Below, piece by piece: positions 1,229 through 63,245 of a stretch of DNA of 64,000 nt (its first letter is position 1; the number at the start of each line of letters is the position of its first letter). The notes beneath the pieces were generated by a model. The model searched no databases and was not told where the DNA came from. It was given only the letters and a program-made list of their open reading frames with translations. Origin of the DNA: an uncultured Gammaproteobacteria bacterium (lineage in GTDB: Bacteria > Patescibacteriota > Patescibacteriia > Magasanikbacterales > JBBTXJ01); assembly GCA_964610305.1 (NCBI GenBank), contig CAZSVL010000002.1, forward strand, positions 40,522 to 104,521, written 5' to 3'. The position numbers were made by a program, and so were the translations under genes.

Positions 1229-1705
1229 TCAAGCAGCAAGCAGTTTTTGCTGCAGGTCTTTTAATCTACTGTAAAAGCCCCTGGTGTGGATAGAATTAAG
1301 ACCTAATTTGCAATGGTCATAATGATGCATCCATTCGTGCAAGAGTGTATTGAGGAACGTTTTGGCTGCTAGAGTTTGTCCACGCACCGCCGTTTTATTG
1401 TTTATATAAATATATTTGCTACCCGGTTTGTAGTAGCCGTATTGCCTAAACACTACTCGGCCGCCACTTTTTTTATGATGTTGGTTTGCGCTAGAGATTT
1501 TTAAGTTCACAATGTCAATGCGAGCCATATCTGCCAGCTCATCAAGAAGCTCATCTCCTAAAAACTGCCTTTTTTCTGTGCTACGAGCTTCCATAAGTTG
1601 CGCGCATAAGTTTCTTGATCTTTTTGATATATGAAAGTCTACGGTGAGGACCGCATTGCTTTTTTCGTAGTTATTTTTAGGCCTTGAAAAGATTGCCATC
1701 ATCAT
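1229..1705 (-). CDS. SprT-like / DUF45-type zinc metallopeptidase (HExxH)
   Basis: LLHEWMHHYDH contains HExxH plus a downstream His, with GFYSRL after it. The start is placed at the MMM codons because the longer ORF would translate the CATACAA repeats. Confidence 0.5.
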   Translation of the reverse strand: MMMAIFSRPKNNYEKSNAVLTVDFHISKRSRNLCAQLMEARSTEKRQFLGDELLDELADMARIDIVNLKISSANQHHKKSGGRVVFRQYGYYKPGSKYIYINNKTAVRGQTLAAKTFLNTLLHEWMHHYDHCKLGLNSIHTRGFYSRLKDLQQKLLAA

Positions 1706-1709
1706 GCAG

Positions 1710-1799
1710 CATACAACATACAACATGCAACATACAATATAGCCATATCAAAATTGGCATGTGGTTGTATTATCTGTATTATTTGATGTATGTTGTATG
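1710..1799. repeat. heptamer iteron region: CATACAA x4 (1710-1737), short palindrome GCCA..TGGC, then inverted TTGTATG-like copies (1765-1799)
   Basis: Read directly in the divergent intergenic region between 1229-1705(-) and 1829(+). Confidence 0.6.
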
Positions 1800-1828
1800 A
1801 TGAATGTCTGTTGTAGAGGGAGGATATC

Positions 1829-2452
1829 ATGAATGTACGGGGATTGCGACCGCAAAGATGTGTGTATATGCTTTTTTCTGGCGATCAGGCACAGGTAGTG
1901 CCGTTTTTGACAGAAGATTCTTATGCAAAGAGCGTTTTTAGGCAGCCCGGCTGGGTGGCAGAGCTTGGTTTAACATCTTGCGGACACTACGTGAGGCTGT
2001 TTGGGAGTTTTGGAGGGCTTTTGTGTGCAGAGATGCTTGTTGGTGGGCCGCTAAAGTCAAAGATTATAGCAGCGGATAGTTGCGCTATGGCGGAATTTGA
2101 TAAGTTCCGCGCCGTCCAACTGGTTGCGCGTGATGAGTCATTTAACGTCGGCGAGCATCGGGTGGATGCAGACTTTGAGCTTTCCATTTTGAAAAGAATG
2201 AAGTTCTCGCCGTTAGAAGGCGTAAAGGTGACATCTGAAGGTGGCACGCTAGAGCTGGGCGGTTTGTGGGGTCGCTCTAAACTATCCGTGCAGGCAATAG
2301 AGGGCGGCATTGAGATTCAGAGCGTGCACGAATTTGCGCAAGAAGTAGAAGGAAAAGTGCGCAAGGTGATTCCGCTAACCACCAAAAGCAGATTTTTAAG
2401 TCAGCAGCTTAATACAGATACGGCGTTTGAGCAGTTAGCTCTAGTAGGATAA
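1829..2452 (+). CDS. hypothetical protein
   Basis: GGGAGG RBS 7 nt before ATG 1829. The ORF is clean and is followed by an intrinsic terminator. Confidence 0.5.
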   Translation: MNVRGLRPQRCVYMLFSGDQAQVVPFLTEDSYAKSVFRQPGWVAELGLTSCGHYVRLFGSFGGLLCAEMLVGGPLKSKIIAADSCAMAEFDKFRAVQLVARDESFNVGEHRVDADFELSILKRMKFSPLEGVKVTSEGGTLELGGLWGRSKLSVQAIEGGIEIQSVHEFAQEVEGKVRKVIPLTTKSRFLSQQLNTDTAFEQLALVG

Positions 2453-2484
2453 AAAAAGGGACCCACGTGGGTCCTGTTTTATTA
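2453..2484. terminator. bidirectional rho-independent terminator
   Basis: AAAAAAA then GGACCCAC/GTGGGTCC, a perfect 8-bp stem, then TGTTTTATT. Confidence 0.75.
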
Positions 2485-3063
2485 TGCACAGGGTTGTCTA
2501 GCGCTTAAACGTTATAGCGTTGGTGATCCTTTGCTTGATCGTTGCTTTTGGCCACTTGTTCATGGGGTCATAGAGGCCCACATAGAGGGCTGCGATTAGT
2601 ACAACTACGGGAGTTCCAATGAAGAGTCATGTAGTGCTAAGGATTTGCTCTACATCTTTTTTTAGATTCTCGTGGAGTGTTGCTTGTAGGTTGAGCGGCT
2701 GGAGATCTTCTGTGGTCGTCTTCTCGCGTGGAGCCCGGAGTCCAGAAAAACGTGCTCGCGCTTTTTTTGTTTGCCTTTGTATATTGTCCAGTACGGAACA
2801 CTCTATATAAGTGTCTGATGGTAGGCGCATCTAGTCTCTCTCCGATGGTTGAGGTTGATTCACTTACGGAGGTAGTATAGGGCAGAATGTTGTTATTGCA
2901 TACACTTGTTCGTCCTTGTCACGGGTTGTTGGTGATGGCCTTGGTGGGAATATCGCTTCGCGATACTGTCTTCGCTTGTTCAGGAAAAGGCAAGCAAGCT
3001 TTCCTTTTCCACTCTCTCCGCTCAGCCGGCGAACCCTTTGGGTTCGTAATCCCACCACTCTGC

Positions 3064-3095
3064 CAACAAAAATACTGCCGTTAGGCAGTTTTTTT
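3064..3095. terminator. bidirectional terminator just 3' of tmRNA
   Basis: CTGCC-GTTA-GGCAG hairpin flanked by A-run and T-run. On the minus strand it directly follows the tmRNA CCA end. Confidence 0.7.
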
Positions 3096-3498
3096 GTTGG
3101 TGGAGATGGTGGGAATCGAACCCACGTCTGGATACGGTCCGCTATCCATGGTTGTCACACGTTTAGCTTGTTGTGTTTTTAACCGCAGGGTAGAAACAAG
3201 CAAAATAATCTGCGGCGATTCCTTCTGCGTTTCGGTGGGGTGGTGAGGAAACCCAGCGCACCTACTCTCGGAGTTATTGCACCGCCGGCCCGCTACCGAG
3301 TGTTGCGGAGGCGATGGTTGTTGCTCTATTTAGGCTACAACGGTTGCTAGCTGTGGTACTGCAAAAAGATTTTTTACAGCGGCCTTAGCTCGCGTAACTA
3401 CATTTGCAAGTAGTATAGTGAATGAATTTATTTAACTCTGCTCATTCTCAGAGCACGTGCCACGGAGCGCTTTGCGCCCATCGAAGCCGATCATCCCC
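3096..3498 (-). ncRNA. ssrA: tmRNA (transfer-messenger RNA)
   Basis: Minus-strand 5' end GGGGATGATCGGCTTCGATGGGCGC and 3' end GGACCGTATCCAGACGTGGGTTCGATTCCCACCATCTCCACCA, a tRNA-Ala-like acceptor/T-arm. It lies immediately downstream of smpB. The candidate tag frame ends ...AVPQLATVVA-TAA. Confidence 0.8.
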
Positions 3499-3499
3499 A

Positions 3500-3943
3500 T
3501 TAGTTTCCTTTTAGAAGCCGTCTAGCCTCTCTGTCGGTGTCTCTTTTCTTTATGCTCTCACGTTTATCGTGAAGCTTCTTTCCCTTTGCTAGACCCAGTT
3601 GAATCTTAATAAGATTCCCCTTTATATAAACAGAAATTGGCACAATTGTCAAGCCCTGTTCATTCACTTTTCCTCTTAAATGTTCCACTTCTCTTTTGTG
3701 CAGGAGCAGTGGTCTTGTGCGCTCTGGATCATAAGATTTGTCTGCCGCAGGCGCGTAGGCATTAACATACATATTAAGAAGCACGGGCCCCTCTTGTGTG
3801 AAGGCGGCGTGCGCTCCTTTAAGTGAAACATTGCCCGCTTTTATAGATTTAACTTCTGCTCCGGTGAGGGCTATACCCGCTTCAATTACCTGCAGAATTT
3901 CGTAATCATGACGTGCCCGTTTGTTTGTTGCAAGATTTTTCAT
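3500..3943 (-). CDS. smpB: SsrA-binding protein SmpB
   Basis: MKNLATNKRARHDYEILQVIEAGIALTGAEVKSIKAGNVSL... is the canonical SmpB N-terminus, with TRPLLLHKREV near the C-terminus. Confidence 0.85.
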   Translation of the reverse strand: MKNLATNKRARHDYEILQVIEAGIALTGAEVKSIKAGNVSLKGAHAAFTQEGPVLLNMYVNAYAPAADKSYDPERTRPLLLHKREVEHLRGKVNEQGLTIVPISVYIKGNLIKIQLGLAKGKKLHDKRESIKKRDTDREARRLLKGN

Positions 3944-3956
3944 TATACTTATAGCA

Positions 3957-4982
3957 ATGAAACCGCATTTAATAACTATTAGCACCAAAACCATTCTTAA
4001 GATCGTGGTGACGGTGCTCTTGTTGTGGCTTCTCTATATTATACGCGATATTGTATTACTTTTTTTTGTCGCGGTGATTTTGGCTTCTTTGATAGAACCG
4101 TGGGCAGCGTGGTGGGAGCATCGGAAGGTTCCGCGGTCGCTTTCCATCTTGGCCATCTATGTTGTTTTAGTGGGAATTGCAGCTGCTGTGGTGGTTTTGC
4201 TCTTGCCGCCTATTGTACGCGAGGGTCAGGGGCTCGTCAAAAATTTAAATACGTATTGGGAGGCAACGGCCGGATCAATTGGGGATCTTCAGCACTTTAG
4301 CACTGATTTTAATATCTTAGAGAGGGCAAAAGGTCTGCTTTTGCCAAGCTCTGGCGCGGTAGGGAAAACACTGGGCGGCATTGTTGCCACGGTGAGTGGT
4401 GTTTTTGGCGGCGTATTTTCATTGCTTCTTGTGTTGGTGCTGGCATTTTATTTGGTAGTAGAAGAGGAGAGTGCTGGCCGATGGATACGGGCTTTTGCTC
4501 CAGATCACTATCAGCCTTTTTTAACGCGGCTTTTCAAAAAAATGCAGCGTAAGCTGGGAAGTTGGCTGAGGGCTCAGCTTATCTTAAGCTTAATCGTGGG
4601 AGTCTTTACCTACGTTGGCCTTACTATTTTAGGAGTTGAGTACGCCTTAGTGCTTGCCCTTATTGCCGCGGTGCTAGAGTTAGTGCCGTACGTTGGGCCG
4701 GTGCTCTCGGCGGTTCCGGCATTATTTTTGGCGTTTACTCAAACAGGAGGCTGGACATTGCCTCTTGCCGTGCTTGCGCTTTTTGTGGTTATTCAGCAAT
4801 TAGAAAATGATCTTTTGGTGCCGCGCGTAATGCAAAAGGCTGTGGGGCTCAATCCGGTGGTGAGTATTATGGCTATTTTAATTGGAGCTCGTCTTGCTGG
4901 TATTGTAGGAGCACTTTTGGCTATTCCTGTGGCCACCGTCATCTACGTATTTACTGAGCAGATGAGATCTGAGCGGGCATAA
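3957..4982 (+). CDS. AI-2E family transporter (PerM/YdiK-like, UPF0118)
   Basis: About 8 TM helices and conserved AI-2E blocks (LLLWLLY..., LIAAVLELVPYVGP, FLAFTQTGGW). The start M is chosen to avoid overlapping smpB. Confidence 0.6.
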   Translation: MKPHLITISTKTILKIVVTVLLLWLLYIIRDIVLLFFVAVILASLIEPWAAWWEHRKVPRSLSILAIYVVLVGIAAAVVVLLLPPIVREGQGLVKNLNTYWEATAGSIGDLQHFSTDFNILERAKGLLLPSSGAVGKTLGGIVATVSGVFGGVFSLLLVLVLAFYLVVEEESAGRWIRAFAPDHYQPFLTRLFKKMQRKLGSWLRAQLILSLIVGVFTYVGLTILGVEYALVLALIAAVLELVPYVGPVLSAVPALFLAFTQTGGWTLPLAVLALFVVIQQLENDLLVPRVMQKAVGLNPVVSIMAILIGARLAGIVGALLAIPVATVIYVFTEQMRSERA

Positions 4983-4984
4983 TT

Positions 4985-5494
4985 ATGAGACGCTACAAGC
5001 GGTTTGATGACGGTAAGGAGCGCACCCCAGTGCTTTTTTTTGTTGGTGCTTTTGCTCTTTTAACCGCTACACTTGCGCTAGTTTTTATAAAATTTAACTC
5101 AAGCCAGCCAAAAGAGCAGCCAGTGGTTGCGCGCCAGATTAAGATTGATCCGGTTTTAAAACCACTTACTCCCGCTCCTGCCGCGGCGCAATACGATAAA
5201 AAAATTAATGAGATAGTAACGGTACTCACAGAGGAGTTAAAAAAAATTTGGGGAACAAGAGAAGATCAGCAGTGGGAGCAACGGGTCAGAGAGAAAAGTA
5301 GCTCAGTAGAAGCTATAAGTTTTATTGAGGGTACAGAAAAAGAAGTTTTGGCGCAAAGAGTTCCCGCATTAAGAAAAGAAGCTCACTTAACACTTGTTGT
5401 GCAGCTCTCCTCGTTGCGCCAAGGCCTGCAAAAAGGTCAGATTGACACGGTAGAAGAAAATTTGGTTAAAATAGAACACACCTTAGAATTATGA
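4985..5494 (+). CDS. hypothetical membrane-anchored protein
   Basis: N-terminal TM helix. Its start is separated from the upstream stop by two bases. Confidence 0.45.
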   Translation: MRRYKRFDDGKERTPVLFFVGAFALLTATLALVFIKFNSSQPKEQPVVARQIKIDPVLKPLTPAPAAAQYDKKINEIVTVLTEELKKIWGTREDQQWEQRVREKSSSVEAISFIEGTEKEVLAQRVPALRKEAHLTLVVQLSSLRQGLQKGQIDTVEENLVKIEHTLEL

Positions 5495-6252
5495 GAGTAG
5501 AGCCCAAAGTAGTGATATTAAGTGCGCTAGCCGGCTTGTGCTTTATTTTGTTATCTGTAAGTAATGGCTGGTTTGGCACGCTTGTGTGGTCCTTGGTACT
5601 TCTTGCGGCGGGCTTTTTTGCGGCATATTGGGCTCCAGAACTAGAGCACAAACATGCCAACAGAGCCATGATAACTATCCCGATACTCTTTTTCCTTCTT
5701 GGTGGCGTATTACTTTTTGTTCTGGTTGAGCAGACGCTTGCCAGGAGACTAACAGCACTGCTTACAACGTTTGGTTTCTTTGTTGCGCTTACTGCTATTT
5801 ATGATAAACAGCTACCAGCGCAGCTTCATATAAGAAGACTTATTCCTACCATGAGAATGGCTTTATATGGAGGTCTTTATGCCCTTTTTTCTGCTGGTTT
5901 TGGCATTATGATATTTCTTAAGCTGCCTGTTTGGTTTTTTGCGCCTGTATTGTCCGCCCTGTGTGGTCTTGCGGTCTGGAGCTTGCTTATAATTGCCGAT
6001 TGTAGCAAACAAAGACTGCTTCCTTCTGTCTATGTTATATCGGTCTTGACATTTGAGCTGTTTTGGGTTATAACATTCCTGCCCCTGGCATATCCGGTTG
6101 CCGGATTTGTGTTGAGCAGTGCCGTTTATATTGCGGTGCAAGCCATAGCTCAGCACGGCGCAGGGGAAAGACTTAAAAAACGTGCGCGCTCCAGAATGAT
6201 AAGCGCAAGCCTAGCAACGGCTTTTGTTCTTGCAATAGCCCGTTGGATATAA
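5491..6252 (+). CDS. hypothetical polytopic membrane protein
   Basis: ATGA start/stop overlap with the upstream gene. About 7-8 TM segments. Confidence 0.5.
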   Translation: MRVEPKVVILSALAGLCFILLSVSNGWFGTLVWSLVLLAAGFFAAYWAPELEHKHANRAMITIPILFFLLGGVLLFVLVEQTLARRLTALLTTFGFFVALTAIYDKQLPAQLHIRRLIPTMRMALYGGLYALFSAGFGIMIFLKLPVWFFAPVLSALCGLAVWSLLIIADCSKQRLLPSVYVISVLTFELFWVITFLPLAYPVAGFVLSSAVYIAVQAIAQHGAGERLKKRARSRMISASLATAFVLAIARWI

Positions 6253-6254
6253 CT

Positions 6255-7358
6255 ATGAGTGCACCTCATTTGCCTCCAAAACAACCAAAAAGAAAATCAA
6301 ACATAGCGGGCTCTGTGCCCGCGCTTTTACTTTTGGTTTTTACGGGCCTTTTAGCCGGCGCTACAGCAGCTCTTATGGTGCTCTCTTATTATCCTGATAT
6401 TGTGGGATTCCGTTTTCCCTATGAGATTAATCAGCCGCAATTAAAAAGCACCCTTAAAACACCAAGTGATGCTGGCGTGCAGGCTCGCGTAACGCAGCAG
6501 TCTATCTTAAATATTTTTTCTGCCAGTGCGCGCGTTAGCCGTGGTGGTGTTTCTTGGTTACCAAAACAAAAAGCTTTGGGTCAAGCAGTGTTGCTTACGG
6601 AAGATGGGTGGGCTCTGAGCAGCGCAGCGGTTGGTTTGCGCAGTATTGATGTGATTGCAACAGACGATCAAGGAAGTGTGTATCCGGTAGAGAAAACCGT
6701 AGTAGATGCCCAAAGCGGTTTTGCTTTTATAAAAATTGATGTTGGAGGAATGAGTGCTGTTCCTCTCTCAACAAAAAATAACTTTTTTCCTGCTGACAAT
6801 GTTTTCTCTATCACCGATGGCGTCTTTTTCTCTCACACTCTTTTACCCAGTGTTTACGATTCAAACAGACCTCTGCGATCAGACAGCATAACAAGATTTC
6901 CGGCTTTGGGTGGTGCCGACTATCTGCCTGAAGGTGCGCCACTTTTTGCTCTTGACGGGTCTTTGGCTGGAGTAGTAAATACCAAAGCAGCTCAGGTTTC
7001 TATGGTGCCTATTTCCGCCGTGCGATCAGTGGTAAAAGATGTCATAGCGGGCGATGGTCTAGCAGACGCGCAAGCGTATATTTCCTACATTTCAATGCCC
7101 GATGTTGTTCCAGCGCAGTTAAGCGCACAGTCTCCGCGAGCAGGCGCCTACGTAGTGGGCGTTGGAAGGACATCTACGGCAGTGCCATTACCAGCGCTGA
7201 GAGTTTCTGATATAATAGTGGCAGTTAATGACGAGCCGGTGACCGGTAGAGCTGATTTAGCGCTGCTACTCTCTCGCATGAGACCGGCACAAGAGGTGCT
7301 TTTGTCTGTTTTTAGAGACGGGCAATATATACGCATCCCCATTATTGTCTCTGCATAA
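6255..7358 (+). CDS. membrane-anchored PDZ-domain protein with a degenerate HtrA/trypsin-like domain
   Basis: C-terminal PDZ (VAVNDEPVTGRADLALLLSRMRPAQEVLLSVFRDGQYIRIPI). The upstream region resembles the HtrA core, but the GNSGG Ser motif is replaced (EGAPLFALDGSLAGVV). Confidence 0.45.
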   Translation: MSAPHLPPKQPKRKSNIAGSVPALLLLVFTGLLAGATAALMVLSYYPDIVGFRFPYEINQPQLKSTLKTPSDAGVQARVTQQSILNIFSASARVSRGGVSWLPKQKALGQAVLLTEDGWALSSAAVGLRSIDVIATDDQGSVYPVEKTVVDAQSGFAFIKIDVGGMSAVPLSTKNNFFPADNVFSITDGVFFSHTLLPSVYDSNRPLRSDSITRFPALGGADYLPEGAPLFALDGSLAGVVNTKAAQVSMVPISAVRSVVKDVIAGDGLADAQAYISYISMPDVVPAQLSAQSPRAGAYVVGVGRTSTAVPLPALRVSDIIVAVNDEPVTGRADLALLLSRMRPAQEVLLSVFRDGQYIRIPIIVSA

Positions 7359-8010
7359 TATGATTCACTACGCAATGCACCTGGCGCGCAGTTGGCGAGC
7401 CATGGTGTTGGTGGGATTGCTAATCGCGGTTATCGCCGGCGGTCTTTCTATGGTATCTGAACTGCAGTATCGCGCTCAGACTCAGGTGTTTGTGCTACCT
7501 ACGGCAACAGCTGGCAGTGATCCTTTTACGCTCGTAAAAACCGCTGAGAGAATCGGCGATAATTTGTCTCATGTGGTAAACACCAGTTCTTTTTTTGAGC
7601 GTGTTATAGAGAGAACTAATGGAACGTTTTCTAAATCTGATTTTGGAAAAAATGATAGAGTAGCGCGCAAAGTATGGAGCAGGTCTATTTCTGTAACTCC
7701 GGTTGTGGGTACCGGCTTTGTGCAAGTTGCGGCTTTTGATGGGAACAAACGTAATGCTGCAATACTGGCTAGTGCTGTGGCTGGTGTTCTGGCAGAGCGA
7801 GGTGGAGAGTTTGTTCCGGGAGATGTCACTATTAAGGAGGTAGACGCGGTGGTGCTGTCGCGTTTTCCGGTTCGCCCCAACGTACCGCTGAACATGATTT
7901 TTGGCTTTTTAATTGGTGTTTTGGGCGTTTCTCTGGTTGAATTGTTTAGAAATCCACGTCATTCTCACGCAAGAGAGCTGACAGCGGTGGATTGGGTGAA
8001 GCATTTGTGA
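7345..8010 (+). CDS. Wzz/CapA-like polysaccharide chain-length-determinant family protein (short)
   Basis: Two TM helices at the ends. The C-terminal TM carries the Wzz-type P..P....G...G..G motif (RFPVRPNVPLNMIFGFLIGVLGVSL). The start may be a downstream M. Confidence 0.45.
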   Translation: MSLHNMIHYAMHLARSWRAMVLVGLLIAVIAGGLSMVSELQYRAQTQVFVLPTATAGSDPFTLVKTAERIGDNLSHVVNTSSFFERVIERTNGTFSKSDFGKNDRVARKVWSRSISVTPVVGTGFVQVAAFDGNKRNAAILASAVAGVLAERGGEFVPGDVTIKEVDAVVLSRFPVRPNVPLNMIFGFLIGVLGVSLVELFRNPRHSHARELTAVDWVKHL

Positions 8011-8013
8011 TTT

Positions 8014-8122
8014 AGTAACTCGTAACTCGTAACTAGTAATTAGTAACTGGTCATAATTGGCTAATTTTAGCCATTTTTTTATATTTTTCTTTCTAGTTAC
8101 CAGTTACCAGTTACAAGTTACA
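8014..8122. repeat. heptamer iteron region: NGTAACT x5 (8014-8048), palindrome TGGCTAA/TTAGCCA, then inverted AGTTACN x4 (8095-8122)
   Basis: Read directly. Same architecture as 1710-1799 and 12300-12363. Confidence 0.7.
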
Positions 8123-8131
8123 AAAAACAAC

Positions 8132-8160
8132 TTGACATTTTGGCCAAAATGTGCTATTAT
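8132..8160 (+). promoter_or_regulatory. sigma70-type promoter TTGACA-17-TGcTATTAT, with a 12-bp palindrome TTTTGGCCAAAA in the spacer
   Basis: Perfect -35, 17-nt spacer, extended -10. The TSS would lie about 255 nt upstream of ATG 8422. Confidence 0.65.
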
Positions 8161-8421
8161 ATGTAGCTACAAAACGTCTAATGCAGAACAAGTAAGATAT
8201 AGTTGCTGCGGAGAAAAAGGCAGTTTTGGAGTAGTATTGCTAGGAGGAAACGTATAGAGCAAGACAAGTAAGAAATAGTTGTTGCGATAGATACGAGAGA
8301 AACTAAGCAATATCGGTAGTTTTCTGCGCGCTACCTGTTTGGCAAGGTGTTGCCCAAACAGGTGGAAGCGCAGAGGTGCTCGCCATAACAATGTCCATAA
8401 AGCGCAGGAAGGAGAAAAACC

Positions 8422-9345
8422 ATGCGTGTATCTTTTGCCGCGCTTGCGGCAGTTCTGGTGAGTGGTCAGTACGCCTACGCTCAGACTCCGGCTCCGGCTG
8501 CAGCTGCTGAGAACAAGTACGAGATCGTCCTCGTTGATCCTACTGATGATGAAGAGATCACGGGGGGCGAGCACGATGCGTCTATTGAATTCAATGAAAA
8601 GCTGCCCTGTTTTCCGGTGACTACCAAGCCAACGGCAGGTCTGGAGGTAAGGATTGCTTTTCAGGGGAAGGATCCGCGCGCTCGTAGTGCCACGGTTGTG
8701 GCGCCCGGTGTTTGTTTGGAGCTTCCGGTAGGAGTTCATGGCATGCTGCGTGGTTGCGTGATGAGCGACGGCCATTGTCACGTGGTTCGGGACTTGGGAA
8801 AGTTCACCGTGACTCGTCTGGAAAAGCCCAAGCCGCAGAAGCGGGTTCGTCCCGGTGGCAAGAGTGGCTCTTCAAAGAAGAAGGCTGCCCTTAAGCCGCT
8901 AGAGGTTCCACTGGGAGTCAGCGGCGGCACCTGCTACGATTCGGACGTGTATGAATGCGTGGGCGCAACGGGAAAGAAGCGCTCTGGCAAGTGCAGCGCG
9001 TATGTGAAAGAGGTGATCCTCTGTCCGACCCCTGGCCGCGTCTTGCTTGCAAGTGCTGATCCTCCTGTGGATCAGGCGCAGGCTGAGCGAGACGATGCGC
9101 AGGATGCGCGGATTGACGGACAGAGTGATCGGATTGGTGACATAGAAAGGCACGTGACAAGCCGGGCTGGCAACGACGATCCTCCCGCTCAGGCCGTAGT
9201 GCCTAGTGGCACTACTGATCCGTGTGTAAGAGAACGACTCAAGAGCAGGTTTTTTGTGCCTGATAGGAAGCCGGCAGCTCGCGCAGAAGCTGCAAAGCGA
9301 GAGTGCGAGATTGCTCACCGAGAGCGGACCGGCACCTCTCATTAG
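8422..9345 (+). CDS. secreted protein (signal peptide), Cys-containing, Ala/Arg/Asp-rich, unknown function
   Basis: RBS GGAGAAAAACC before the ATG. Signal peptide MRVSFAALAAVLVSGQYAYAQ. GC-rich relative to flanks. Confidence 0.55.
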   Translation: MRVSFAALAAVLVSGQYAYAQTPAPAAAAENKYEIVLVDPTDDEEITGGEHDASIEFNEKLPCFPVTTKPTAGLEVRIAFQGKDPRARSATVVAPGVCLELPVGVHGMLRGCVMSDGHCHVVRDLGKFTVTRLEKPKPQKRVRPGGKSGSSKKKAALKPLEVPLGVSGGTCYDSDVYECVGATGKKRSGKCSAYVKEVILCPTPGRVLLASADPPVDQAQAERDDAQDARIDGQSDRIGDIERHVTSRAGNDDPPAQAVVPSGTTDPCVRERLKSRFFVPDRKPAARAEAAKRECEIAHRERTGTSH

Positions 9346-9497
9346 AAAGTAAGGGTAATGGGTACTGTCACGCTGTGGCGGTACCCCTCTTTACACCGCA
9401 GCCAAGGTTTGGCTTCGGTGAGCAGAGCAGGAGGAGAGCACTTTGAATTAAGCTATAGCCACAGGGTTTGCGCCCTGCAATCCGAAAGGAGTTTGAC

Positions 9498-10112
9498 ATG
9501 AGGACGTCAACACAAGCGGCGCTGTGCGCAGCGCTCCTTCTGTGCCCAGAGTTGGCACGTGCAGATGAGAGGGTCCCTCCGCATCGTATTGATGGGTTGA
9601 GAGGCCGCGCAGCAGACCAGGAAGAAGAGACGATTAGGCGTAGCTCACGTTACTATCTTTTGGGTGGTACGTGGGGTCACTTGCGACCACATCCGGGTAA
9701 AACGGAGGGGTATCGCACGTTTGGTGGCGTAGGCTTTGGCCTGACCACGCCTTTTTATCGCAGAACAGCTGAGCTAGACGTAGAGCTTAAGGTTGGGCTG
9801 AGCGAAGCGGCGAAGACGGGCCCCGTTGTGGTGGTACGTATGCGGCCTGCGCTTGAGAGTCGTTTCCAGGCAGGTGGCGTAATTCAGTACTACTGGGACA
9901 ACAAAGATCTGTTTGATCTGGTGGATCACGGCTTTGGTGTTGGTGGAAGCTTTCTGTACACGCTGACATCTCGTCACAATGCGGCAGTCATGGCGGAGAG
10001 GCTTGATGCGTCGGTCGTAGCAGATCTAACATTGGGTAAAAATCGTTCAAAGACCGTAAACAAGAACACGTGGTCGCCGGCTTTTAGTTTGGCCATGGTG
10101 TTTCGTTTCTAG
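9498..10112 (+). CDS. secreted protein, possible outer-membrane beta-barrel (C-terminal ...FSLAMVFRF)
   Basis: AAAGGAG 6 nt before ATG 9498. Signal peptide ends ARA. Alternating hydrophobic C-terminus ending in Phe. Confidence 0.5.
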   Translation: MRTSTQAALCAALLLCPELARADERVPPHRIDGLRGRAADQEEETIRRSSRYYLLGGTWGHLRPHPGKTEGYRTFGGVGFGLTTPFYRRTAELDVELKVGLSEAAKTGPVVVVRMRPALESRFQAGGVIQYYWDNKDLFDLVDHGFGVGGSFLYTLTSRHNAAVMAERLDASVVADLTLGKNRSKTVNKNTWSPAFSLAMVFRF

Positions 10113-10117
10113 TCCGT

Positions 10118-10146
10118 GTGGTGAAGTGATCTTCACCCCTTTTAAG
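10118..10146 (+). terminator. putative intrinsic terminator
   Basis: GGTGAAG-TGAT-CTTCACC hairpin followed by CCTTTTAAG, a weak U tract. Confidence 0.4.
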
Positions 10147-10382
10147 CACATATTACTATTCATGGGCAGTAGTATATGCTTACAAGCGGACGACCACGCC
10201 GTTCTGCGTGTGTGCGAGGTATGCAACCTTCCGGTTGCATTGAGCATGGGCCTCACACCACGTAGAACGGCTTGGTCGACGCATGAGCGTAAATTAGGCC
10301 TTTACAAAACAAAGAAGACAAGTAAGCAAGAAACCGTTTCTTGGTGCGCCGAGGAAAGCGTATCAACATGCAAGGAGTTAAC

Positions 10383-12239
10383 ATGCGAAAGCTTTTTGTT
10401 CTACTGAGCGCCTGTATTTTCAGCATTGCCTGCGAGGGTGGGTGCGGCGATAACGCCGTTCCAGGAGGAGACTACGCGATCGCTGAAGGTGAGGGAGAAG
10501 GCGAAGCCGTTGCGGAGCCCGAGCCCGATCCAGAGCCTGAGTGCGATGAGAGTACGGCGTGCGATGAAGGTTTCAGTTGCGTCTCTGGCGAGTGCCGAGA
10601 AGTAGTTGAGGTTCCGGTAAAGCCTGAGTGTACTGACGATGATCCCTGCGATGAGGGCTTCCGCTGCGAGCGGGGCCTGTGCATTGAAGAGGTTGAGCCA
10701 GAGCCACTCGGCTGCACTTCTAACGCGGATTGCCCCAATCCGGCACAGTGCGATAGGGAGTCCGGTCTGTGTGTGGAGTACCGCATTCCGGATCCGGTTG
10801 AGCCGCCGTGCCGCGGCGTGGTGAGCTGCCCGTGTTACGATAACGGAACGTGTGACGACGGCGCGCTGTGCGTGGAGTCTGACAGCTCGGATATGTGTTA
10901 CCCCGATTCTGACAACGATGGCGTTGTTGATGAAGAGGATAACTGTCCGGCGGATGCAAACGGTCCGGCTGATGTTTCCAATCAGGTGGATCTGGATGGA
11001 GACGGCGCTGGCGATGCGTGTGATGAAGACGTGGACGGGGACGATGTTCCCAATGACGTTGACACGTGTCCGCGTACGCATAACCGGGATAACGATCCTG
11101 GCGCGTGCGCTCCGGAGCCTAACTGTCGGCAGAGCGATCAGTGTAATGATGGAAACGCGTGCACGGCAGATGTCTGTACGCCGCAGGGTACCTGTGAGAA
11201 TCGCCCCGTCAATTGTGACGATGGCGTGGATTGCACGGTTGATACCTGCATTCCGGCACTCGGTTGCTCTCATGAGGAGTCGGACGATCTGTGTGGTGAT
11301 GAGCTCTCGTGTTTCTCTTTTGGAGATGAGAGCGTCTGGCTGGATTTCTTTGGTGATCAGCTTGACCTTGAGTCTGGGTGCCAGCAGTGTGCCCCTGGCT
11401 TCCTTGGTAACGAGGACCAGTGTGACGACGGGGATCTGTGTACCCGAGGATCGTGCACGGATGAAATGACCTGCGAGCAGGAGCCTTTCTGCCATGAGAA
11501 TGAGCAGTGCCTGGTTTTCGGTGAGGAGCCGGACGAGGGTGAGGAAGATGAGCGGTTCGCTGCATGCGGAACGGATCAGGATGGAGACGGCTTCTTCCGT
11601 GGTTTCCGTATTCCGCTAGATGAGCGTGACTGCAATGACTGGAATGAGGACAGTAATCCGGATGCTCCTGAGCTGTGTGATCGAACTGACAACGATTGCG
11701 ATGGCGACATTGACGAGGGGTTTGAGTTTGGTTGGTGCGAGGTGGGCGTTGGTGCCTGCCGCCGTGTTGGTCAGCTCATCTGTAGCCCGGATCGTCGTGG
11801 AACGGAGTGCTCGGTCCGCGCTTGGGATCCTGATCCTGAGGTCTGCGGAGATGACATTGACAACGACTGCGATGGCGCAGTAGATGAGAACTGCAATGAT
11901 GGTGGTGGTCCTGGTCCCAATGGTGGGACGGACACCGTGCGTGTGTGCGTTCCGGCTGATCCGGGAGGCACGTGGCAGAGCAGCATCTTTGGGGATCCGT
12001 CCGGTGGGACGGAAAACCAGAATGCAGGCGCCTGTCGCGATGAGGTGACTCAGGAGCTCAATAGGAGTTTCCTGCGCTTTAACGCACGCAAGCCGAGCGG
12101 TTCGTACTGCTGCGGTTGGCATAACAACCCGGACGATGTTCGGGATACGTGTCAGGGACTGCGCGTTTACGTTGACGGCGTTGCTCAGGAGATTGAGTGC
12201 GTCAACGAGGACGGTCAGTACAACTATCGCCTTGAGTAA
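10383..12239 (+). CDS. Cys-rich secreted/lipoprotein with thrombospondin-type-3-like Ca-binding repeats and Myxococcus-type Cys-rich 'metal-binding' motifs
   Basis: AAGGAG RBS before ATG 10383. Signal MRKLFVLLSACIFSIAC. Contains [56 protein letters not shown] and CGDDIDNDCDGAVDENC. Confidence 0.65.
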   Translation: MRKLFVLLSACIFSIACEGGCGDNAVPGGDYAIAEGEGEGEAVAEPEPDPEPECDESTACDEGFSCVSGECREVVEVPVKPECTDDDPCDEGFRCERGLCIEEVEPEPLGCTSNADCPNPAQCDRESGLCVEYRIPDPVEPPCRGVVSCPCYDNGTCDDGALCVESDSSDMCYPDSDNDGVVDEEDNCPADANGPADVSNQVDLDGDGAGDACDEDVDGDDVPNDVDTCPRTHNRDNDPGACAPEPNCRQSDQCNDGNACTADVCTPQGTCENRPVNCDDGVDCTVDTCIPALGCSHEESDDLCGDELSCFSFGDESVWLDFFGDQLDLESGCQQCAPGFLGNEDQCDDGDLCTRGSCTDEMTCEQEPFCHENEQCLVFGEEPDEGEEDERFAACGTDQDGDGFFRGFRIPLDERDCNDWNEDSNPDAPELCDRTDNDCDGDIDEGFEFGWCEVGVGACRRVGQLICSPDRRGTECSVRAWDPDPEVCGDDIDNDCDGAVDENCNDGGGPGPNGGTDTVRVCVPADPGGTWQSSIFGDPSGGTENQNAGACRDEVTQELNRSFLRFNARKPSGSYCCGWHNNPDDVRDTCQGLRVYVDGVAQEIECVNEDGQYNYRLE

Positions 12240-12253
12240 GGAGAAGTAACACC

Positions 12254-12292
12254 CCGGCCCAGTGGAGTATTCCACTGTGGCCGGTTTTTTTA
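12254..12292 (+). terminator. rho-independent terminator
   Basis: CCGGCCCAGTGGAGTATTCCACTGTGGCCGG hairpin followed by TTTTTTT. Confidence 0.75.
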
Positions 12293-12299
12293 AGTAGAA

Positions 12300-12363
12300 A
12301 GTAACAAGTAACAAAAAACGCACAGTGCGAAAAATTGTTACTTGTTACTTGTTACTTGTTAAT
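12300..12363. repeat. heptamer iteron region: AGTAACA x2, palindrome CGCACAGTGCG, then inverted TGTTACT x4
   Basis: Read directly. Shares the core CAAGTWACAAAAAAC with the 8116 copy. Confidence 0.7.
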
Positions 12364-12370
12364 TTATAAT
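12342..12370 (+). promoter_or_regulatory. promoter TTGTTA-17-TATAAT built from the inverted heptamers
   Basis: -10 TATAAT at 12365-12370. -35 TTGTTA at 12342-12347, which is the first inverted repeat. Confidence 0.5.
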
Positions 12371-12376
12371 AAGAGC

Positions 12377-13753
12377 GTGTCGCTATCAGTACGACAACTT
12401 TTGGGTATTTTAGCTCTTTGTGTTTTGGGGGCGCTTTTGGCCGTGTACGCACCGGCCTTGGTGTTTGTGTTGCTGGTTTTGGCAATGGTGGTTTGGCTTT
12501 TGTCTTTTTCTGCACACGTAGGATGGTATATCCTACTTTTTTTATATCCGCTTTTGGGGTGGAGCGTTTCTCTCTCATCATTTGATTTAACTAAAGGAAC
12601 ATTTCTTGCCTCTTTTAACGCGCCGGTTGCTGATTTTTGGGCGCTTATCTTGATAACGGCAGTAGGTATTTGGATGCTTAGAGAAGATATGCGCGGTAGA
12701 GCAGTGCCTTTGCGCGCGCCGCGAGCCATGTGGTTTGGTTTTTTTGTGCTGTCTGCGCTTGTTTCATTATTCAATGCTCCTGCCACAGAGGTTTTTGATG
12801 GCTTCAGGTTTATTATTCGTAACCTGATCTTTATTTATGTGGCCTATGTGGTTTTGCCCACAGCCGCGCTCCGTAATCAGGATCAGATAAAAAAGAGCGT
12901 TGGGGTGCTATTAAGCATGGGAGTTGTGCTTATGGGTTGGGGTATTGCTTCTTTGTTTGTGCTGCAGCCGTTTTGGGGAGTGTGGCGGCGGGTGAGCCCG
13001 TTTGGCATTGGTGGTTGGGCGCCGCTTGGACTTTTTCATAATGATTTGGCAGAAGTGATGGTGGTGATGGTGCCTTTGGCTCTGTGGTGGTATGCAAATG
13101 AAAAACGCGATCATCTAAAACGTATAGCGCTGCTTTATGTAATCTTAATGACAACGCTAACGCTGCTTACCTTTAGTAGAACCGCGTGGATTGTGCTTTT
13201 TGTACAGTTGCTTGTCTATTGGATGTTGAGCGCTCAGAAAGTCAGACAGAGAGCCGCTCGTATTATAAGTCCTGTAGCTTTGATGTTGTTGATTCCCATT
13301 GGTGCGTACATGGTATTTTTTTCTGCTTCAGACTATGTGGCGTCTTCTACTTCATCAAGATTAGACATGACGCGTATTGCTCTTATGTCTTTTGCAGAGC
13401 ATCCTTTTATTGGTAATGGCGCGGGCAGACACATAGATTTAATTGCGGGAGCAGAGGCGTTTAGGATTGTGTATGGTCCGGCTTTTGATGCTCATGGGGT
13501 TATTCAAAAATTGCTCTCTGAGCAAGGTCTTTTTGGACTGATTTCCTTTTTTGCCTTTGTGCTTTGGCTTGTTTATGATATGGTTTTTGCGTATAAGCAT
13601 CAAAGAGCAGGTTCCTATAAACAGCTTTTGTTAGCACTGTGCGCCGTGGCTATTGGAGCGGTGGTGTATCAGCTATTTAATACGCAGTACTATACGGCCA
13701 AGATGTGGGTCCCTGTAGGTTTTGCGTACGCCGCATCTAGATTAAAACATTAA
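12377..13753 (+). CDS. Wzy_C/O-antigen-ligase-like polytopic membrane protein
   Basis: Multi-TM, with the O-antigen-ligase block (LTFSRTAWIVLFVQLL). The start is uncertain: GTG 12377, while the track's TTG 12335 would translate the repeats. Confidence 0.55.
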   Translation: MSLSVRQLLGILALCVLGALLAVYAPALVFVLLVLAMVVWLLSFSAHVGWYILLFLYPLLGWSVSLSSFDLTKGTFLASFNAPVADFWALILITAVGIWMLREDMRGRAVPLRAPRAMWFGFFVLSALVSLFNAPATEVFDGFRFIIRNLIFIYVAYVVLPTAALRNQDQIKKSVGVLLSMGVVLMGWGIASLFVLQPFWGVWRRVSPFGIGGWAPLGLFHNDLAEVMVVMVPLALWWYANEKRDHLKRIALLYVILMTTLTLLTFSRTAWIVLFVQLLVYWMLSAQKVRQRAARIISPVALMLLIPIGAYMVFFSASDYVASSTSSRLDMTRIALMSFAEHPFIGNGAGRHIDLIAGAEAFRIVYGPAFDAHGVIQKLLSEQGLFGLISFFAFVLWLVYDMVFAYKHQRAGSYKQLLLALCAVAIGAVVYQLFNTQYYTAKMWVPVGFAYAASRLKH

Positions 13754-13759
13754 CGTATC

Positions 13760-14974
13760 ATGAAAATTCTAATTGTATCGCAAGAAATTGCCATTGATCA
13801 GCCCGGAGGCAGCGGTAGGGTGGCGTGGGAACAGGCCAGAGGTTTAGCGCAAGCTGGGCATACGGTTGTACTGTGCGCTCCTATGCCGCGAAAAGGCTTA
13901 AAGAAAACCCAGAAAAGAGATGGCGTTACTATTTTTAGATATGGGAACGTAAAGCGGCGTGGGGTTTTAGGAAGATCATTTGCTGATATTGTGGATACTC
14001 CTGCTTTTATAAAAAAGACGCTTGCCGGCGCAAAGTATGACAAAATTATTGCTCATCACCCTCATGTAGCTTACGGGCTCTTGCGCGTTTCTGCGGCCAG
14101 GGCAATTCCGCTTTTATACGTATTCCATGCTTCTGCGGCAGCTGAAATAAGATATGAAGGGCTCTCCAGAAAGTCGCTTAGTAAATGGAATGAGTGGCTA
14201 CTGCGACCGGTGTACGTGCGCTGGACAGCATGGATTGAGAGATCAGTGCTCAAAAGAGCAAGAGCGGTGGCTGTTTTTTCTCATTTTTCTGCAAAGCTGC
14301 TTGAGGATTTATATGGAAGATCGGTTAAAGGGAAAACGGTAACCCGTTTGGCCATGGGTGTTGACATGAAGCGCTTTTCTGCGGCAAAATCAAAAAATGC
14401 GGTTCGCAAGAAGTTAAAGATTGATCAGAATAAGCTTGTTTTTTTAAGCGTACGCAGGCTAGTACCGCGAACGGGCGTTCATGTACTCATTGAGAGTTTT
14501 AGAATAGCGTATGACAGGCTGGGGGAGGACATAGAGCTTGTTATTGTGGGAGAGGGAAGAGAGCAGAAGCGACTAGAGAGCCTGAGCCGTTCAATAGGCC
14601 TGCGGAAAGTGGTGCGTTTTGTGGGAAGATCAAGCGATGAGCAGCTACCACTGTGGTATCAGGCAGCGGATGTGCACGTGATACCAACGGTTGCATACGA
14701 GGGATTTGGTGTATCAACTATAGAGTCTATGAGCAGCGGGGTGCCGGTTATTGGCGTGCCAACGGGCGCCATACCAGAGGTGTTGCTGTCATTTGATGAG
14801 CGGCTGCTTGCCGATGCTGCAAAGCCGCTTCCGCTGGCAGAGCGTTTGGTGTGGTTTGCAGAGGAGGGTGTGGCTGAAAAGTGGCCTGATCGATGCCGAG
14901 CATTTGTAAAAAGATTTTATAGCTGGTCTAAGCATACAGCGCAAGTAGAGGGGGTTTTGAAAGAAATAAAATAA
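13760..14974 (+). CDS. GT4-family glycosyltransferase
   Basis: EGFGVSTIESMSSGVPVIGVPTGAIPEV is the GT4 E-x7-E region. Confidence 0.7.
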   Translation: MKILIVSQEIAIDQPGGSGRVAWEQARGLAQAGHTVVLCAPMPRKGLKKTQKRDGVTIFRYGNVKRRGVLGRSFADIVDTPAFIKKTLAGAKYDKIIAHHPHVAYGLLRVSAARAIPLLYVFHASAAAEIRYEGLSRKSLSKWNEWLLRPVYVRWTAWIERSVLKRARAVAVFSHFSAKLLEDLYGRSVKGKTVTRLAMGVDMKRFSAAKSKNAVRKKLKIDQNKLVFLSVRRLVPRTGVHVLIESFRIAYDRLGEDIELVIVGEGREQKRLESLSRSIGLRKVVRFVGRSSDEQLPLWYQAADVHVIPTVAYEGFGVSTIESMSSGVPVIGVPTGAIPEVLLSFDERLLADAAKPLPLAERLVWFAEEGVAEKWPDRCRAFVKRFYSWSKHTAQVEGVLKEIK

Positions 14975-25596: not shown

Positions 25597-25603
25597 GTAC
25601 GCA

Positions 25604-25755
25604 GGGGTTAGGGTGTAGGGTGTAGCCTCTTAGCGTCATCCTGAACTTGATTCAGGATCCAGGCAGGAGTATAAGACGTGCTCTATTTCTACCCTAGATT
25701 CTGAATCAAGTTCAGAATGACAAGTGGGCAACACTACACCCTACACCCTAACCCC
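25604..25755. mobile_element. MITE-like 152-bp palindromic element with perfect 22-bp terminal inverted repeats (GGGGTTAGGGTGTAGGGTGTAG ... CTACACCCTACACCCTAACCCC)
   Basis: Terminal IRs are exact reverse complements. Two internal hairpins (TCCTGAA-CTTGAT-TTCAGGA and TTCTGAA-TCAAGT-TTCAGAA) are themselves mutual reverse complements. Confidence 0.55.
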
Positions 25756-25771
25756 TATACCCTAGAGAAAC

Positions 25772-44990: not shown

Positions 44991-45006
44991 GCTACCGTAT
45001 AATCTT

Positions 45007-62080: not shown

Positions 62081-62125
62081 CTTTCTTTGCAGCAAGTATA
62101 CCATAGGTACTCCATAAATAATGTG

Positions 62126-62131
62126 GTATAA
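62126..62131 (+). promoter_or_regulatory. -10 element TATAAT placed 10 nt before ATG 62142 (possible leaderless mRNA)
   Basis: TGGTATAATCTTCTCACTATG. No SD sequence is present. Confidence 0.35.
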
Positions 62132-62141
62132 TCTTCTCACT

Positions 62142-63159: not shown

Positions 63160-63245
63160 TCAGGCATTAGGCAGTAGGCATTAGGCTTCAGTGATCGCAC
63201 CTTAAAAGTGCGCTAATGCCTGAGGCCTACTGCCTAATGCCTCAA
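63160..63245. repeat. nested palindrome built from (TAGGCA)-type repeats: AGGCATTAGGCAGTAGGCATTAGGC ... GCCTACTGCCTAATGCCT, with inner hairpin CGCAC..GTGCG
   Basis: Read directly. It sits between the UXS stop and the terminator. Confidence 0.6.

Follow-up and report, generated by a model that had tools for sequence, protein, structure and literature searches.

Gene content of the island and its setting

We analysed a 64,000-nt stretch of contig CAZSVL010000002.1 (hereafter the window), which holds, between genes for a Wzz-like and a Wzy-like protein, a GC-rich island of three genes (P1, P2 and P3) bordered on each side by an intergenic element (E2 and E3) made of mirrored arrays of 7-nt repeats. 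The window has a GC content of about 46%, and nearly all of its genes lie on the plus strand. Most of them concern envelope polysaccharides (the Wzz-like protein, five Wzy_C O-antigen-ligase-like proteins, many GT4 and GT2 glycosyltransferases, and sugar-nucleotide enzymes), and the window also codes for an extracytoplasmic function (ECF) sigma factor, accompanied by a DUF5667 partner, as well as for large secreted proteins. The host is an Uhrbacteria-type member of the Patescibacteria, as judged by the GT4 adjoining the island, which shares 61% identity with a protein from Candidatus Uhrbacteria bacterium RIFCSPLOWO2_02_FULL_51_9, and by a neighbouring gene product, the PDZ protein at 6243-7358, whose best match is in a Patescibacteria metagenome-assembled genome (MAG). 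The latter protein gave full-length matches of 20-27% identity together with short PDZ-domain matches in a scan of genome contigs, and no close relative was found by this route.

P1 (8422-9345, plus strand) codes for a lineage-restricted secreted protein of 307 aa with 10 Cys, P2 (9498-10112, plus strand) for a secreted orphan of 204 aa that is predicted to be beta-rich and ends in ...VFRF, and P3 (10383-12239, plus strand) for a Cys-rich lipoprotein of 618 aa with 61 Cys, thrombospondin (TSP) type-3 calcium-binding repeats and MopE-type motifs. A preliminary description of this DNA, made from its letters alone, had spoken of three Cys-rich/secreted proteins. Signal-like N-termini were recognised in all three, by eye rather than with a predictor, together with a lipobox LSAC in P3; the Cys-richness holds for P1 and P3, whereas P2 has two Cys, both within its signal peptide. 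The TSP3 repeats and MopE motif attributed to the largest protein were borne out by a hidden Markov model search, in which P3 scores above the Pfam gathering thresholds for PF02412 (TSP_3; 36.1 bits vs 25) and for PF11617 (MopE-type; 32.3 vs 27). P1 and P2 have no match in Pfam or in a sequence search of the PDB. The most likely role of the three products would be to build a cell-surface or adhesive structure.

From its sequence and alignments the island looks like a single transcription unit whose promoter and structured leaders have been conserved, and we infer that P1, P2 and P3 form one operon. A consensus scan of positions 7900-12500 returned only two strong sigma70-like sites, at 8132-8160 and 12342-12370. 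The first of these (plus strand; TTGACA-17-TATTAT, 11/12 with TG) is the promoter-like sequence of the P1-P2-P3 unit, and is kept in L041, a contig from a relative that we reached by a search with the GT4 (82% identity). At the other end lies a canonical intrinsic terminator (12254-12291, plus strand; stem of 13-14 bp and T7), kept both in L041 and in a second relative, L048. Between P2 and P3, a hairpin GGTGAAG-tgat-CTTCACC followed by CCTTTT (10120-10143, plus strand) is likewise kept in both relatives, and is a possible attenuator or terminator.

Both P1 and P3 are preceded by conserved leaders. That of P1 (8166-8421, plus strand) is probably structured according to its alignment with L041 (83% identity over the whole alignment, higher within the leader, with paired changes), and contains two 39-nt direct repeats at 8172-8210 and 8248-8286, each with CAAGTAAG, and a long hairpin at about 8326-8395. 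That of P3 (10150-10382, plus strand), aligned with L041 and L048, is structured around a long hairpin at about 10178-10292, whose apical stem (10215-10245) varies on both sides yet stays paired in the two relatives; across the three sequences, both-side changes affect 8/62 pairs of the hairpin. Neither these leaders nor the heptamer hairpins described below match any Rfam family. The motif ACAAGTAAG occurs at 8188, 8264 and 10318, within about 1 nt of where related motifs had previously been noticed inside the island, and has four matches in the window against 0.43 expected; its third copy (10318) falls in an indel that is missing from L041. The suggestion that the island might be a dedicated regulon module is thus roughly right, in so far as it has the look of one unit with a conserved promoter and leaders.

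The composition of the island differs clearly from that of its surroundings. The 500-nt windows between 8501 and 12000 have 56-59% GC, compared to a mean of about 46% for the whole window and about 45% for the surroundings, and bases 8422-12239 have 54-58% GC with a GC content at third codon positions (GC3) of 0.54-0.59, against 0.37-0.47 on either side. Per-gene counts agree (GC of 0.58, 0.54 and 0.58 and GC3 of 0.56, 0.54 and 0.59 for P1, P2 and P3, respectively, vs 0.43-0.50 and about 0.37-0.51 for the neighbouring genes), confirming the GC step reported earlier. The expected deviation in k-mers was found in part: the island is the top outlier of the window in raw tetranucleotides (z=3.5), but its score falls to z=2.2 after normalisation for GC, and the region 21.5-26 kb then deviates more. 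The island does therefore have the deviating composition of a genomic island.

Mirrored heptamer arrays at the borders of the island

E2 (8012-8128) begins 2 nt past the stop codon of gene 7345-8010 and folds at -34.6 kcal/mol (z=-6.0). Its left array, (GTAACTN)x5 at 8013-8048, and its right array, (AGTTACN)x4 followed by AAAAAAC at 8095-8128, enclose a centre with a small conserved hairpin, GGCTAAttttTTAGCC, and then T7 (8058-8080), with a terminator-like site for the upstream operon at 8058-8073; the right arm ends 3 nt 5' of the -35 of the 8132-8160 promoter. E3 (12292-12370; -28.9 kcal/mol, z=-5.9) has a left array of the units AAGTAGA, AAGTAAC, AAGTAAC and AAAAAAC, a central palindrome CGCACAGTGCG at 12319-12329, and a right array of (TTGTTAC)x3 plus TTGTTAA at 12335-12364, inside which lies the -35 of the promoter-like sequence of the wzy gene (TTGTTA-17-TATAAT, 12342-12370). 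The program TRF called heptamer arrays at 8013-8048, 8095-8121, 12299-12314 and 12335-12361. The motif GTAACNNGTAAC has 12 matches in the window against 2.25 expected from a shuffle control, and 11/12 lie within E2 and E3.

The composite architecture first noticed here, consisting of an array, a short palindrome, an inverted array and a promoter, is therefore present at both borders. A 15-mer said to be shared by the two elements also exists, at 8114-8128 and 12305-12319, about 2 nt away from where it had been placed. What did not hold is that E2 and E3 are two direct copies of the same element: when aligned, their likeness is confined to the heptamer arms with their GTAAC core, and their centres and promoters are unrelated. 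Nor is the arrangement special to the island, since the same architecture built from other heptamers occurs at three more sites of the window. Mirrored elements occupy 5 of about 14 intergenic gaps of at least 90 nt, so that both borders would be occupied by chance with a probability of about 0.11, and the bracketing of the island does not exceed what chance would give.

Conservation of the island in Uhrbacteria-type relatives

In L041 the gene order is identical to that of the window (AI-2E transporter, two small proteins, PDZ protease-like, Wzz-like, P1, P2, P3, Wzy, GT4, and onward), and there is the same GC step (55-59% vs 45-49%) with GC3 raised likewise. The flanking genes of the window and L041 share about 62-96% protein identity. 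P1 and P2 evolve faster than most of their neighbours, with 46-52% identity (46-47% for P1) vs mostly 63-96% in flanking genes. L048 carries P2 and P3, the latter 82% identical, with the same intergenic regions. In contigs from more distant Uhrbacteria (L042-L047), a P3 homologue of 613-638 aa lies immediately 5' of Wzy, with identities of 38-45% for P3, 48-52% for Wzy and 61% for the GT4.

The genes in this slot are GC-richer than their flanks in every relative examined. In L042-L047 they have a GC of 0.67-0.71 and a GC3 of 0.82-0.92 (0.87-0.89 for the P3 gene before Wzy), compared to a GC3 of 0.54-0.65 for the flanks. GC3 in the slot thus reaches 0.82-0.92 in relatives of 52-57% GC and 0.54-0.60 in genomes of 46-49% GC, being above the flanks everywhere. 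The unusual composition is hence a long-standing trait of this locus rather than the sign of a recent insertion.

Upstream of P3, the distant relatives code for a Cys-rich secreted protein that shares GTCYDS.V..C with P1 and for a protein whose C-terminal half is weakly P2-like and ends in YRF or VKF. Both links are weak, and these proteins are suggestive candidates only for counterparts of P1 and P2. Around eight long beta strands are predicted for P2 and its possible counterparts (L042 5396-6247; L047 1344-2246), all of which end in an aromatic residue (VFRF, YRF, VKF). Such strands and ends recall small outer-membrane barrels, which would be odd in a lineage thought to have no outer membrane; an AlphaFold2 model of P2 from three sequences does have eight long strands, at a confidence (pLDDT 39.6) too low to be reliable. 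Long antisense open reading frames (ORFs) overlie the GC-rich Cys/Asp-rich genes, an example in the window being one of 364 aa at 10401-11495. In L042 (6418-8283) and L044 (1190-3055) the P3 gene seemed to be inverted, a reading that was rejected because tblastn puts the P3 homologue on the plus strand; the minus-strand public ORF of 621 aa in these two contigs is therefore a gene-calling artefact of GC-rich DNA. A metagenome scan with the conserved IG3 motif gave 0 matches and hence no more relatives.

Apart from its composition, the island has none of the marks of a recently acquired genomic island. It is not absent from close relatives (complete in L041, as P2 and P3 in L048, as P3 in L042-L047), and comparison with relatives revealed no empty site. 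No integrase or transposase domain was found in the genes near the island and no tRNA; a tmRNA is separated from the island by 4.5 kb and five conserved genes, and neither mobility genes nor such an integration site stand at its borders. The flanking arrays are not the direct repeats of an integration or recombination site either, being absent in L041 and alike only in their arms. Altogether, these comparisons indicate that the island is likely an old, vertically inherited surface-protein operon rather than a recent import.

The border arrays appear younger than the island

Alignment of E2 with L041 shows that the stop-codon region, the central hairpin with its T7, the TTGACA-17-TATTAT sequence and the entire 255-nt leader are conserved, and that the left array amounts to 33 nt inserted immediately 3' of the stop codon, with the right array standing in place of non-repetitive DNA of equal length. 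At E3, conservation extends to the terminator after P3 and to the TATAAT region. The right arm corresponds in L041 to degenerate heptamers (CGTTAAT, TGTGAAT, TGTTCGT, TGTTAAT) and in L048 to TTGTTCA, TTGTTAA, TTGTTCA and TTGTTAA; nothing in either contig corresponds to the left arm or to the central palindrome. Over 110 kb of the relatives' loci, no period-7 array was found except one in L048.

Since the arrays are absent at the borders in L041, they arose when the island was already present, and those at both borders appear to have formed after the split from the nearest sampled relatives. They are not an artefact of assembly, given that an independent Logan contig from the same source sample is identical over positions 4941-14288 of the window, a segment that spans both E2 and E3.

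Hairpin-type insertions are concentrated in the spacer that separates the terminator of P3 from the Wzy promoter, which is a hotspot for them. L041 (8470-8590) and L048 (2860-3070) have different, longer palindromic inserts there, and that of L048 is GC-rich, about 190 nt long and flanked by GGGTCAGAGTGCCAT...ATGGCACTCTGACCC.

Origin of the GC excess

The GC step and the flanking repeats had been taken to fit a horizontal acquisition of the segment 8166-12295 from a high-GC, Myxococcota-like donor, through recombination between two copies of the repeat element. The GC and GC3 steps at the borders, the heptamer elements with a GTAAC core on both sides and the frequency of MopE/TSP3 motifs in proteins of Myxococcota all speak for it, but L041 has the island, the order and the GC step without heptamer arrays at either border, and it is this synteny without flanking repeats that refutes such a recombination. 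Furthermore, all Uhrbacteria relatives keep P3 before Wzy, homologues of P1 and P2 are confined to the clade, E2 and E3 resemble each other only in their heptamer arms, and no integrase, transposase or tRNA lies nearby, so a recent acquisition is exceedingly improbable.

The protein databases offer no better support for a Myxococcota donor. P1 has two representatives among 1.84 billion proteins and P2 three among 5.8 billion, and the six full-length relatives of P3 are all Uhrbacteria-type. Other matches to P3 concern MopE or TSP3 repeats only, cover 6-48% of the query (mostly 10-20%), and come from Myxococcota, Bradymonadales, Gammaproteobacteria, Bacteroidota, other candidate-phyla bacteria and one Nanoarchaeota MAG. 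No donor is thus visible for the island.

A much older transfer, in which the ancestor of the Uhrbacteria clade would have received the cassette or P3 alone from a high-GC bacterium, with partial amelioration since, deserves serious thought, although we lean somewhat against it. It concerns the origin of the composition only and is compatible with vertical inheritance of the operon thereafter. It would agree with a slot GC3 that is always above the flanks, at 0.82-0.92 or at 0.54-0.60 depending on the genome, with the repeat modules that P3 has in common with Myxococcota, Bradymonadales and others, and, more weakly, with the aromatic ends and predicted beta-rich, outer-membrane-barrel-like nature of P2-like proteins. 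Yet P1 and P2 have no homologue in any donor, no full-length P3 homologue exists outside the clade, and a lasting excess of GC3 could instead be due to selection, or to GC-biased gene conversion, acting on a surface locus that evolves fast and recombines, as the 46-52% identity of P1 and P2 vs mostly 63-96% in flanking genes would suggest.

Mirrored heptamer hairpins elsewhere in the window and in other genomes

Three further elements of the same architecture lie in the window. E1 (1703-1812; z=-3.7) is built on the unit CATACAA and has a promoter-like TTGGCA-17-TATTAT inside. E4 (25603-25764; -97.8 kcal/mol, z=-11.3) has the units GGGTGTA and CTACACC around a 104-nt nested palindrome, and lies 3' of a canonical terminator, with a TTGACA hexamer 6 nt beyond it that has no good -10. 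E5 (63160-63244; -51 kcal/mol, z=-8.6), with the units AGGCATT and CTAATGC, begins 2-4 nt past the stop codon of gene 62121-63158, which codes for an epimerase. The five elements all lie between genes and fold far better than shuffled sequences (z from -3.7 to -11.3), E3 and E4 following canonical terminators and E2 and E5 stop codons. A scan of the window returned seven arrays of period 7 vs 0 at periods 5 and 8-10, and there are four types of unit in the 64 kb, which differ between sites.

The arms of E4 (25603-25625 and 25730-25764) consist of G-run/C-run heptamers (GGGGTTAGGGTGTAGGGTGTAG), and the four G-runs on the minus strand of the right arm make a G-quadruplex possible. At its centre, the nested palindrome 25633-25722 has the ends GTCATCCTGAA...TTCAGAATGAC, and a palindromic insert 5' of Wzy in L047 (4508-4608) has similar ones (GTCATTCTGGAG...CTCCAGGATGAC). 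The two may belong to a small family in Uhrbacteria resembling MITEs, the miniature transposable elements with inverted repeats.

Mirrored arrays are by no means confined to this window and recur in numerous unrelated contigs of metagenomic and viral origin. We examined a sample of metagenome loci picked by the presence of four GTAACNN units (at least 120 loci, GC 0.35-0.67), in which frequencies are not population estimates, as well as viral contigs scanned for GTAAC and, as controls, for two cores that match it in composition, GATAC and GACTA (80, 58 and 117 loci, respectively). The metagenome loci listed contain at least 388 arrays of period 7 with at least 161 different units, and at least 29 mirrored pairs within 250 nt; the viral loci added 44 pairs, which makes at least 73 altogether beyond the five elements of the window. 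In the window and the metagenome loci, period 7 is strongly favoured over periods 8-11.

With ORFs called naively around the 73 pairs, only 2/73 of the pairs fall within an ORF among the matches listed. In the same list, 36 pairs lie between co-oriented, 14 between convergent and 7 between divergent genes, and the co-oriented ones have a median distance of 14 nt to the upstream stop vs 81.5 nt to the downstream start, 25/36 being nearer the stop.

Two viral-classified contigs of IMG/VR are especially rich in such elements. L272 (67% GC) has six mirrored hairpins in 13 kb (1241-12277), each with its own unit, as in the window, and L225 has seven in 11.7 kb (1331-10660) with one common unit. Several of these hairpins are directly 5' of a ribosome-binding site and start codon. 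Comparison of the two with annotated phages gave no useful match.

The idea that GTAAC is a special recognition core, either similar to the -35 of an ECF sigma factor or belonging to the TAACTGA family, was abandoned as a general claim. In viral contigs, 4-unit arrays of GATAC and GACTA are about as numerous as those of GTAAC, and since the control cores are as frequent, the GTAAC core is not special. Inspection of the sequence also showed that the arrays are not compatible with ECF-type spacing relative to a CGT -10 motif.

Relationship to known repeats

The elements of the window are a mirrored form of the intergenic heptanucleotide repeats that are already known from bacteria and that remain unexplained. 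TAACTGA repeats are found between genes in Beggiatoaceae, cyanobacteria and Bacteroidetes, where they are almost always direct, with one inverted case found by MacGregor (PMC4679880); the E2 units TAACTCG and TAACTAG resemble them. Repeats of GGGNATC and GGGGAYT in Xanthomonas and Nostoc lie mainly between genes of like orientation and no more than 50 bp from a stop codon, and a further case of heptanucleotide repeats is that of the short tandemly repeated repetitive sequences (STRR) of Calothrix (cited in PMC4692102). The G-run/C-run heptamers in the arms of E4 are comparable to the G-quadruplex-forming GGGNATC class of Xanthomonas and Nostoc. As in these simple sequence repeats (SSRs), the window arrays have tandem 7-nt units, from two to tens of copies, an almost exclusively intergenic position near a stop codon (about 50 nt), a preference for co-oriented gene pairs and a role that is likewise unexplained; three or more tandem units occur above chance, and they are close to the 3' end of the upstream gene. 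The known arrays are direct and use one or a few units per genome, whereas those of the window are mirrored, form long hairpins, have no dominant unit and vary in unit from site to site, and their host is a Patescibacterium. Our searches of the full-text literature, whose coverage is incomplete, found no description of mirrored arrays with locus-specific units.

Other systems share some of these features. In Haemophilus influenzae, (ATCTTTC)n is one arm of a hairpin in the 5' untranslated region (UTR) of hmw1A that is processed by RNase III and tunes the HMW1 adhesin (PMC12721329). There too a heptamer SSR forms the arm of a long hairpin beside the gene of a surface adhesin, as the arms in the window do (fold z of -3.7 to -11.3). 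The hmw1A hairpin differs in having one repetitive arm, a 5'-UTR site and a demonstrated RNase III processing and phase variation; both arms are repetitive in the window elements, and a consensus scan puts the promoter-like sites of E2 and E3 at or after the right arm rather than upstream of the hairpin. Runs of 7-bp repeats, direct and inverted, that lie over promoters are the target of Omega, a DNA-binding protein of pSM19035 (PMC9499535). Four or more contiguous 7-bp repeats in both orientations likewise overlap the promoter at E3 and abut it at E2. Omega operators differ in having one consensus, WATCACW, and a ribbon-helix-helix (RHH) protein, whereas the units of the window vary and no RHH protein is found among its small ORFs.

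Repetitive extragenic palindromic (REP) sequences and MITEs are multi-copy families of one sequence, associated with a REP-associated tyrosine transposase (RAYT) or with terminal repeats and target duplications. The window elements are similar to REP palindromes, their bacterial interspersed mosaic element (BIME) arrangements and MITEs in being intergenic, hairpin-forming and concentrated at the 3' ends of genes, and differ from them in being locus-specific in sequence, with a 7-nt periodicity inside and no transposase seen; no target duplication is visible at the elements, by a check that was not systematic. As for the island proteins, P3 is Cys- and Asp-rich and exported like the MopE/TSP3 surface proteins (PF11617, PF02412), and is distinguished by a full-length architecture confined to a handful of Uhrbacteria-type proteins.

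Possible origin and role of the arrays

Taken as a whole, we think it rather probable that the locus is an inherited surface-protein operon in a glycan cluster, bounded by young hairpin-forming heptamer repeats. Bases 8132-12291 would be a single inherited transcription unit for three exported proteins between the Wzz-like and Wzy-like genes, and E2 and E3 would be neither recombination scars nor copies of one mobile element. The arrays would instead fill dispensable DNA between the end of one transcription unit, be it a stop codon or a terminator, and the next promoter. They may have originated by a slippage-type expansion of 7-nt units, and by the copying of one arm to form the other, with a pre-existing hairpin (at E2) or a promoter-proximal repeat (at E3) in between. 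If the arrays act at all, their positions would favour a role at the RNA level, as 3'-end or insulator hairpins between transcription units. By extension, mirrored heptanucleotide-array hairpins could be a distinct, widespread and undescribed intergenic class in bacteria and viruses, made by unit expansion on one side of a hairpin and hairpin-templated copying to the other, so that every locus would come to have a unit of its own, and serving as modular RNA 3'-end, insulator or processing hairpins; this we put forward tentatively.

Several observations weigh against this picture. Firm conservation at depth appears to hold for P3 only: the similarity of P1 and P2 to genes of the distant slots is weak (blastp 9e-5 and 0.1; hhalign P of 0.002-0.01 with probabilities of 4-13%). 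The GC excess may have an ancient foreign origin or stem from a GC bias specific to the locus. Any function of the hairpins is one that we infer; E2, E3 and E4 have no U-tract 3' of the full hairpin, and the conserved terminator sits inside E2, so the right arm is perhaps rarely transcribed. Finally, the excess of convergent over divergent pairs (14 vs 7) is not significant against the background (242 vs 202, naive ORFs).

Alternatively, the arrays might serve as operator or centromere-like sites at which 7-bp-repeat-binding proteins of the Omega/ParB type control the P1 and Wzy promoters. At least four contiguous heptads in direct and inverted orientation do overlap or abut the promoters of E2 and E3, matching the Omega geometry (PMC9499535), but the units vary between loci in both the window and L272, so that no single protein could read all arrays, and a search limited to the small ORFs of the window gave no RHH protein. 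The arrays are moreover missing in L041 despite its conserved promoters, and many mirrored pairs elsewhere abut stop codons or sit between convergent genes, which makes an operator role quite improbable. Phase variation, whereby gain or loss of 7-nt units would tune the surface operon and Wzy in the manner of the HMW1 (ATCTTTC)n hairpin, is a little easier to defend and still unlikely. Genes for surface proteins and the envelope lie next to the elements, a heptamer SSR as the arm of a long hairpin is the hmw mechanism (PMC12721329), and the number and sequence of units vary between relatives. Nevertheless, the promoter-like hexamers are 3' of the right arm or inside it, hence the hairpins are not in 5' UTRs, and slippage in the periodic arm of E3 would recreate an identical -35, so that copy number would hardly alter promoter geometry; elements also precede housekeeping-type genes (E5, GT2 gene), and the sole second assembly of the sample is identical.

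The arrays may finally have no function and be neutral or selfish by-products of slippage and hairpin-templated copying that expand up to constrained sequence. They exactly fill the space from the stop codon or terminator to the -35, sparing the conserved terminator hairpin and promoter, they are young and lineage-specific, and their units are arbitrary, control cores being equally common. On the other side stand the strong preference for period 7 over 8-11, the recurrence of the mirrored arrangement in very different genomes and the bias towards stop codons, which together suggest a specific generating mechanism or selection. We hold a purely neutral origin to be possible if doubtful, and nearly as likely as a role as RNA hairpins. 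The operator and phase-variation readings are less likely because units vary by site, promoters are at or after the right arm, and a relative devoid of arrays has nevertheless conserved these promoters.

As far as the island is concerned, these results are a corrective: a GC step and flanking repeats mimicked a fresh transfer, and relatives point to an inherited operon whose odd composition is itself conserved, which is a warning for composition-based island calling in Patescibacteria. P1-P2-P3 becomes a candidate cell-surface or attachment module in the glycan cluster of an organism thought to be host-attached. The flanking repeats are nonetheless the more interesting part of the finding. To our knowledge, nobody has explained why 7-nt repeats are over-represented between bacterial genes, and mirror-pair hairpins with site-specific units, together with array-free orthologous sites, provide a handle on how heptamer repeats arise and on whether they are RNA 3'-end or insulator structures. 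Should mirrored arrays prove to be a class of their own, this Uhrbacteria window would be a clean natural example, with orthologous 'before' states in relatives.

Other features of the window

A tmRNA gene at 3098-3498 (minus strand) was detected by Rfam (81 bits) and missed by ARAGORN. The gene that precedes AI-2E in L041 is smpB, vs the tmRNA in the window. Positions 43919-45006 form a stretch of 1088 nt with no long ORF upstream of a UDP-glucose/GDP-mannose dehydrogenase gene, whose product does not have the first 66 or so positions of the N-terminal domain profile; the gene may have a frameshifted or degraded start. A second GC-richer gene, 25857-27998 (GC 0.54, GC3 only 0.47), codes for a lipoprotein-like product of 713 aa with no Pfam match, and has Gly/Glu-rich tandem repeats of 27 and 57 nt at 26192-26339. 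In contrast to the island, its GC excess stems from amino-acid composition.

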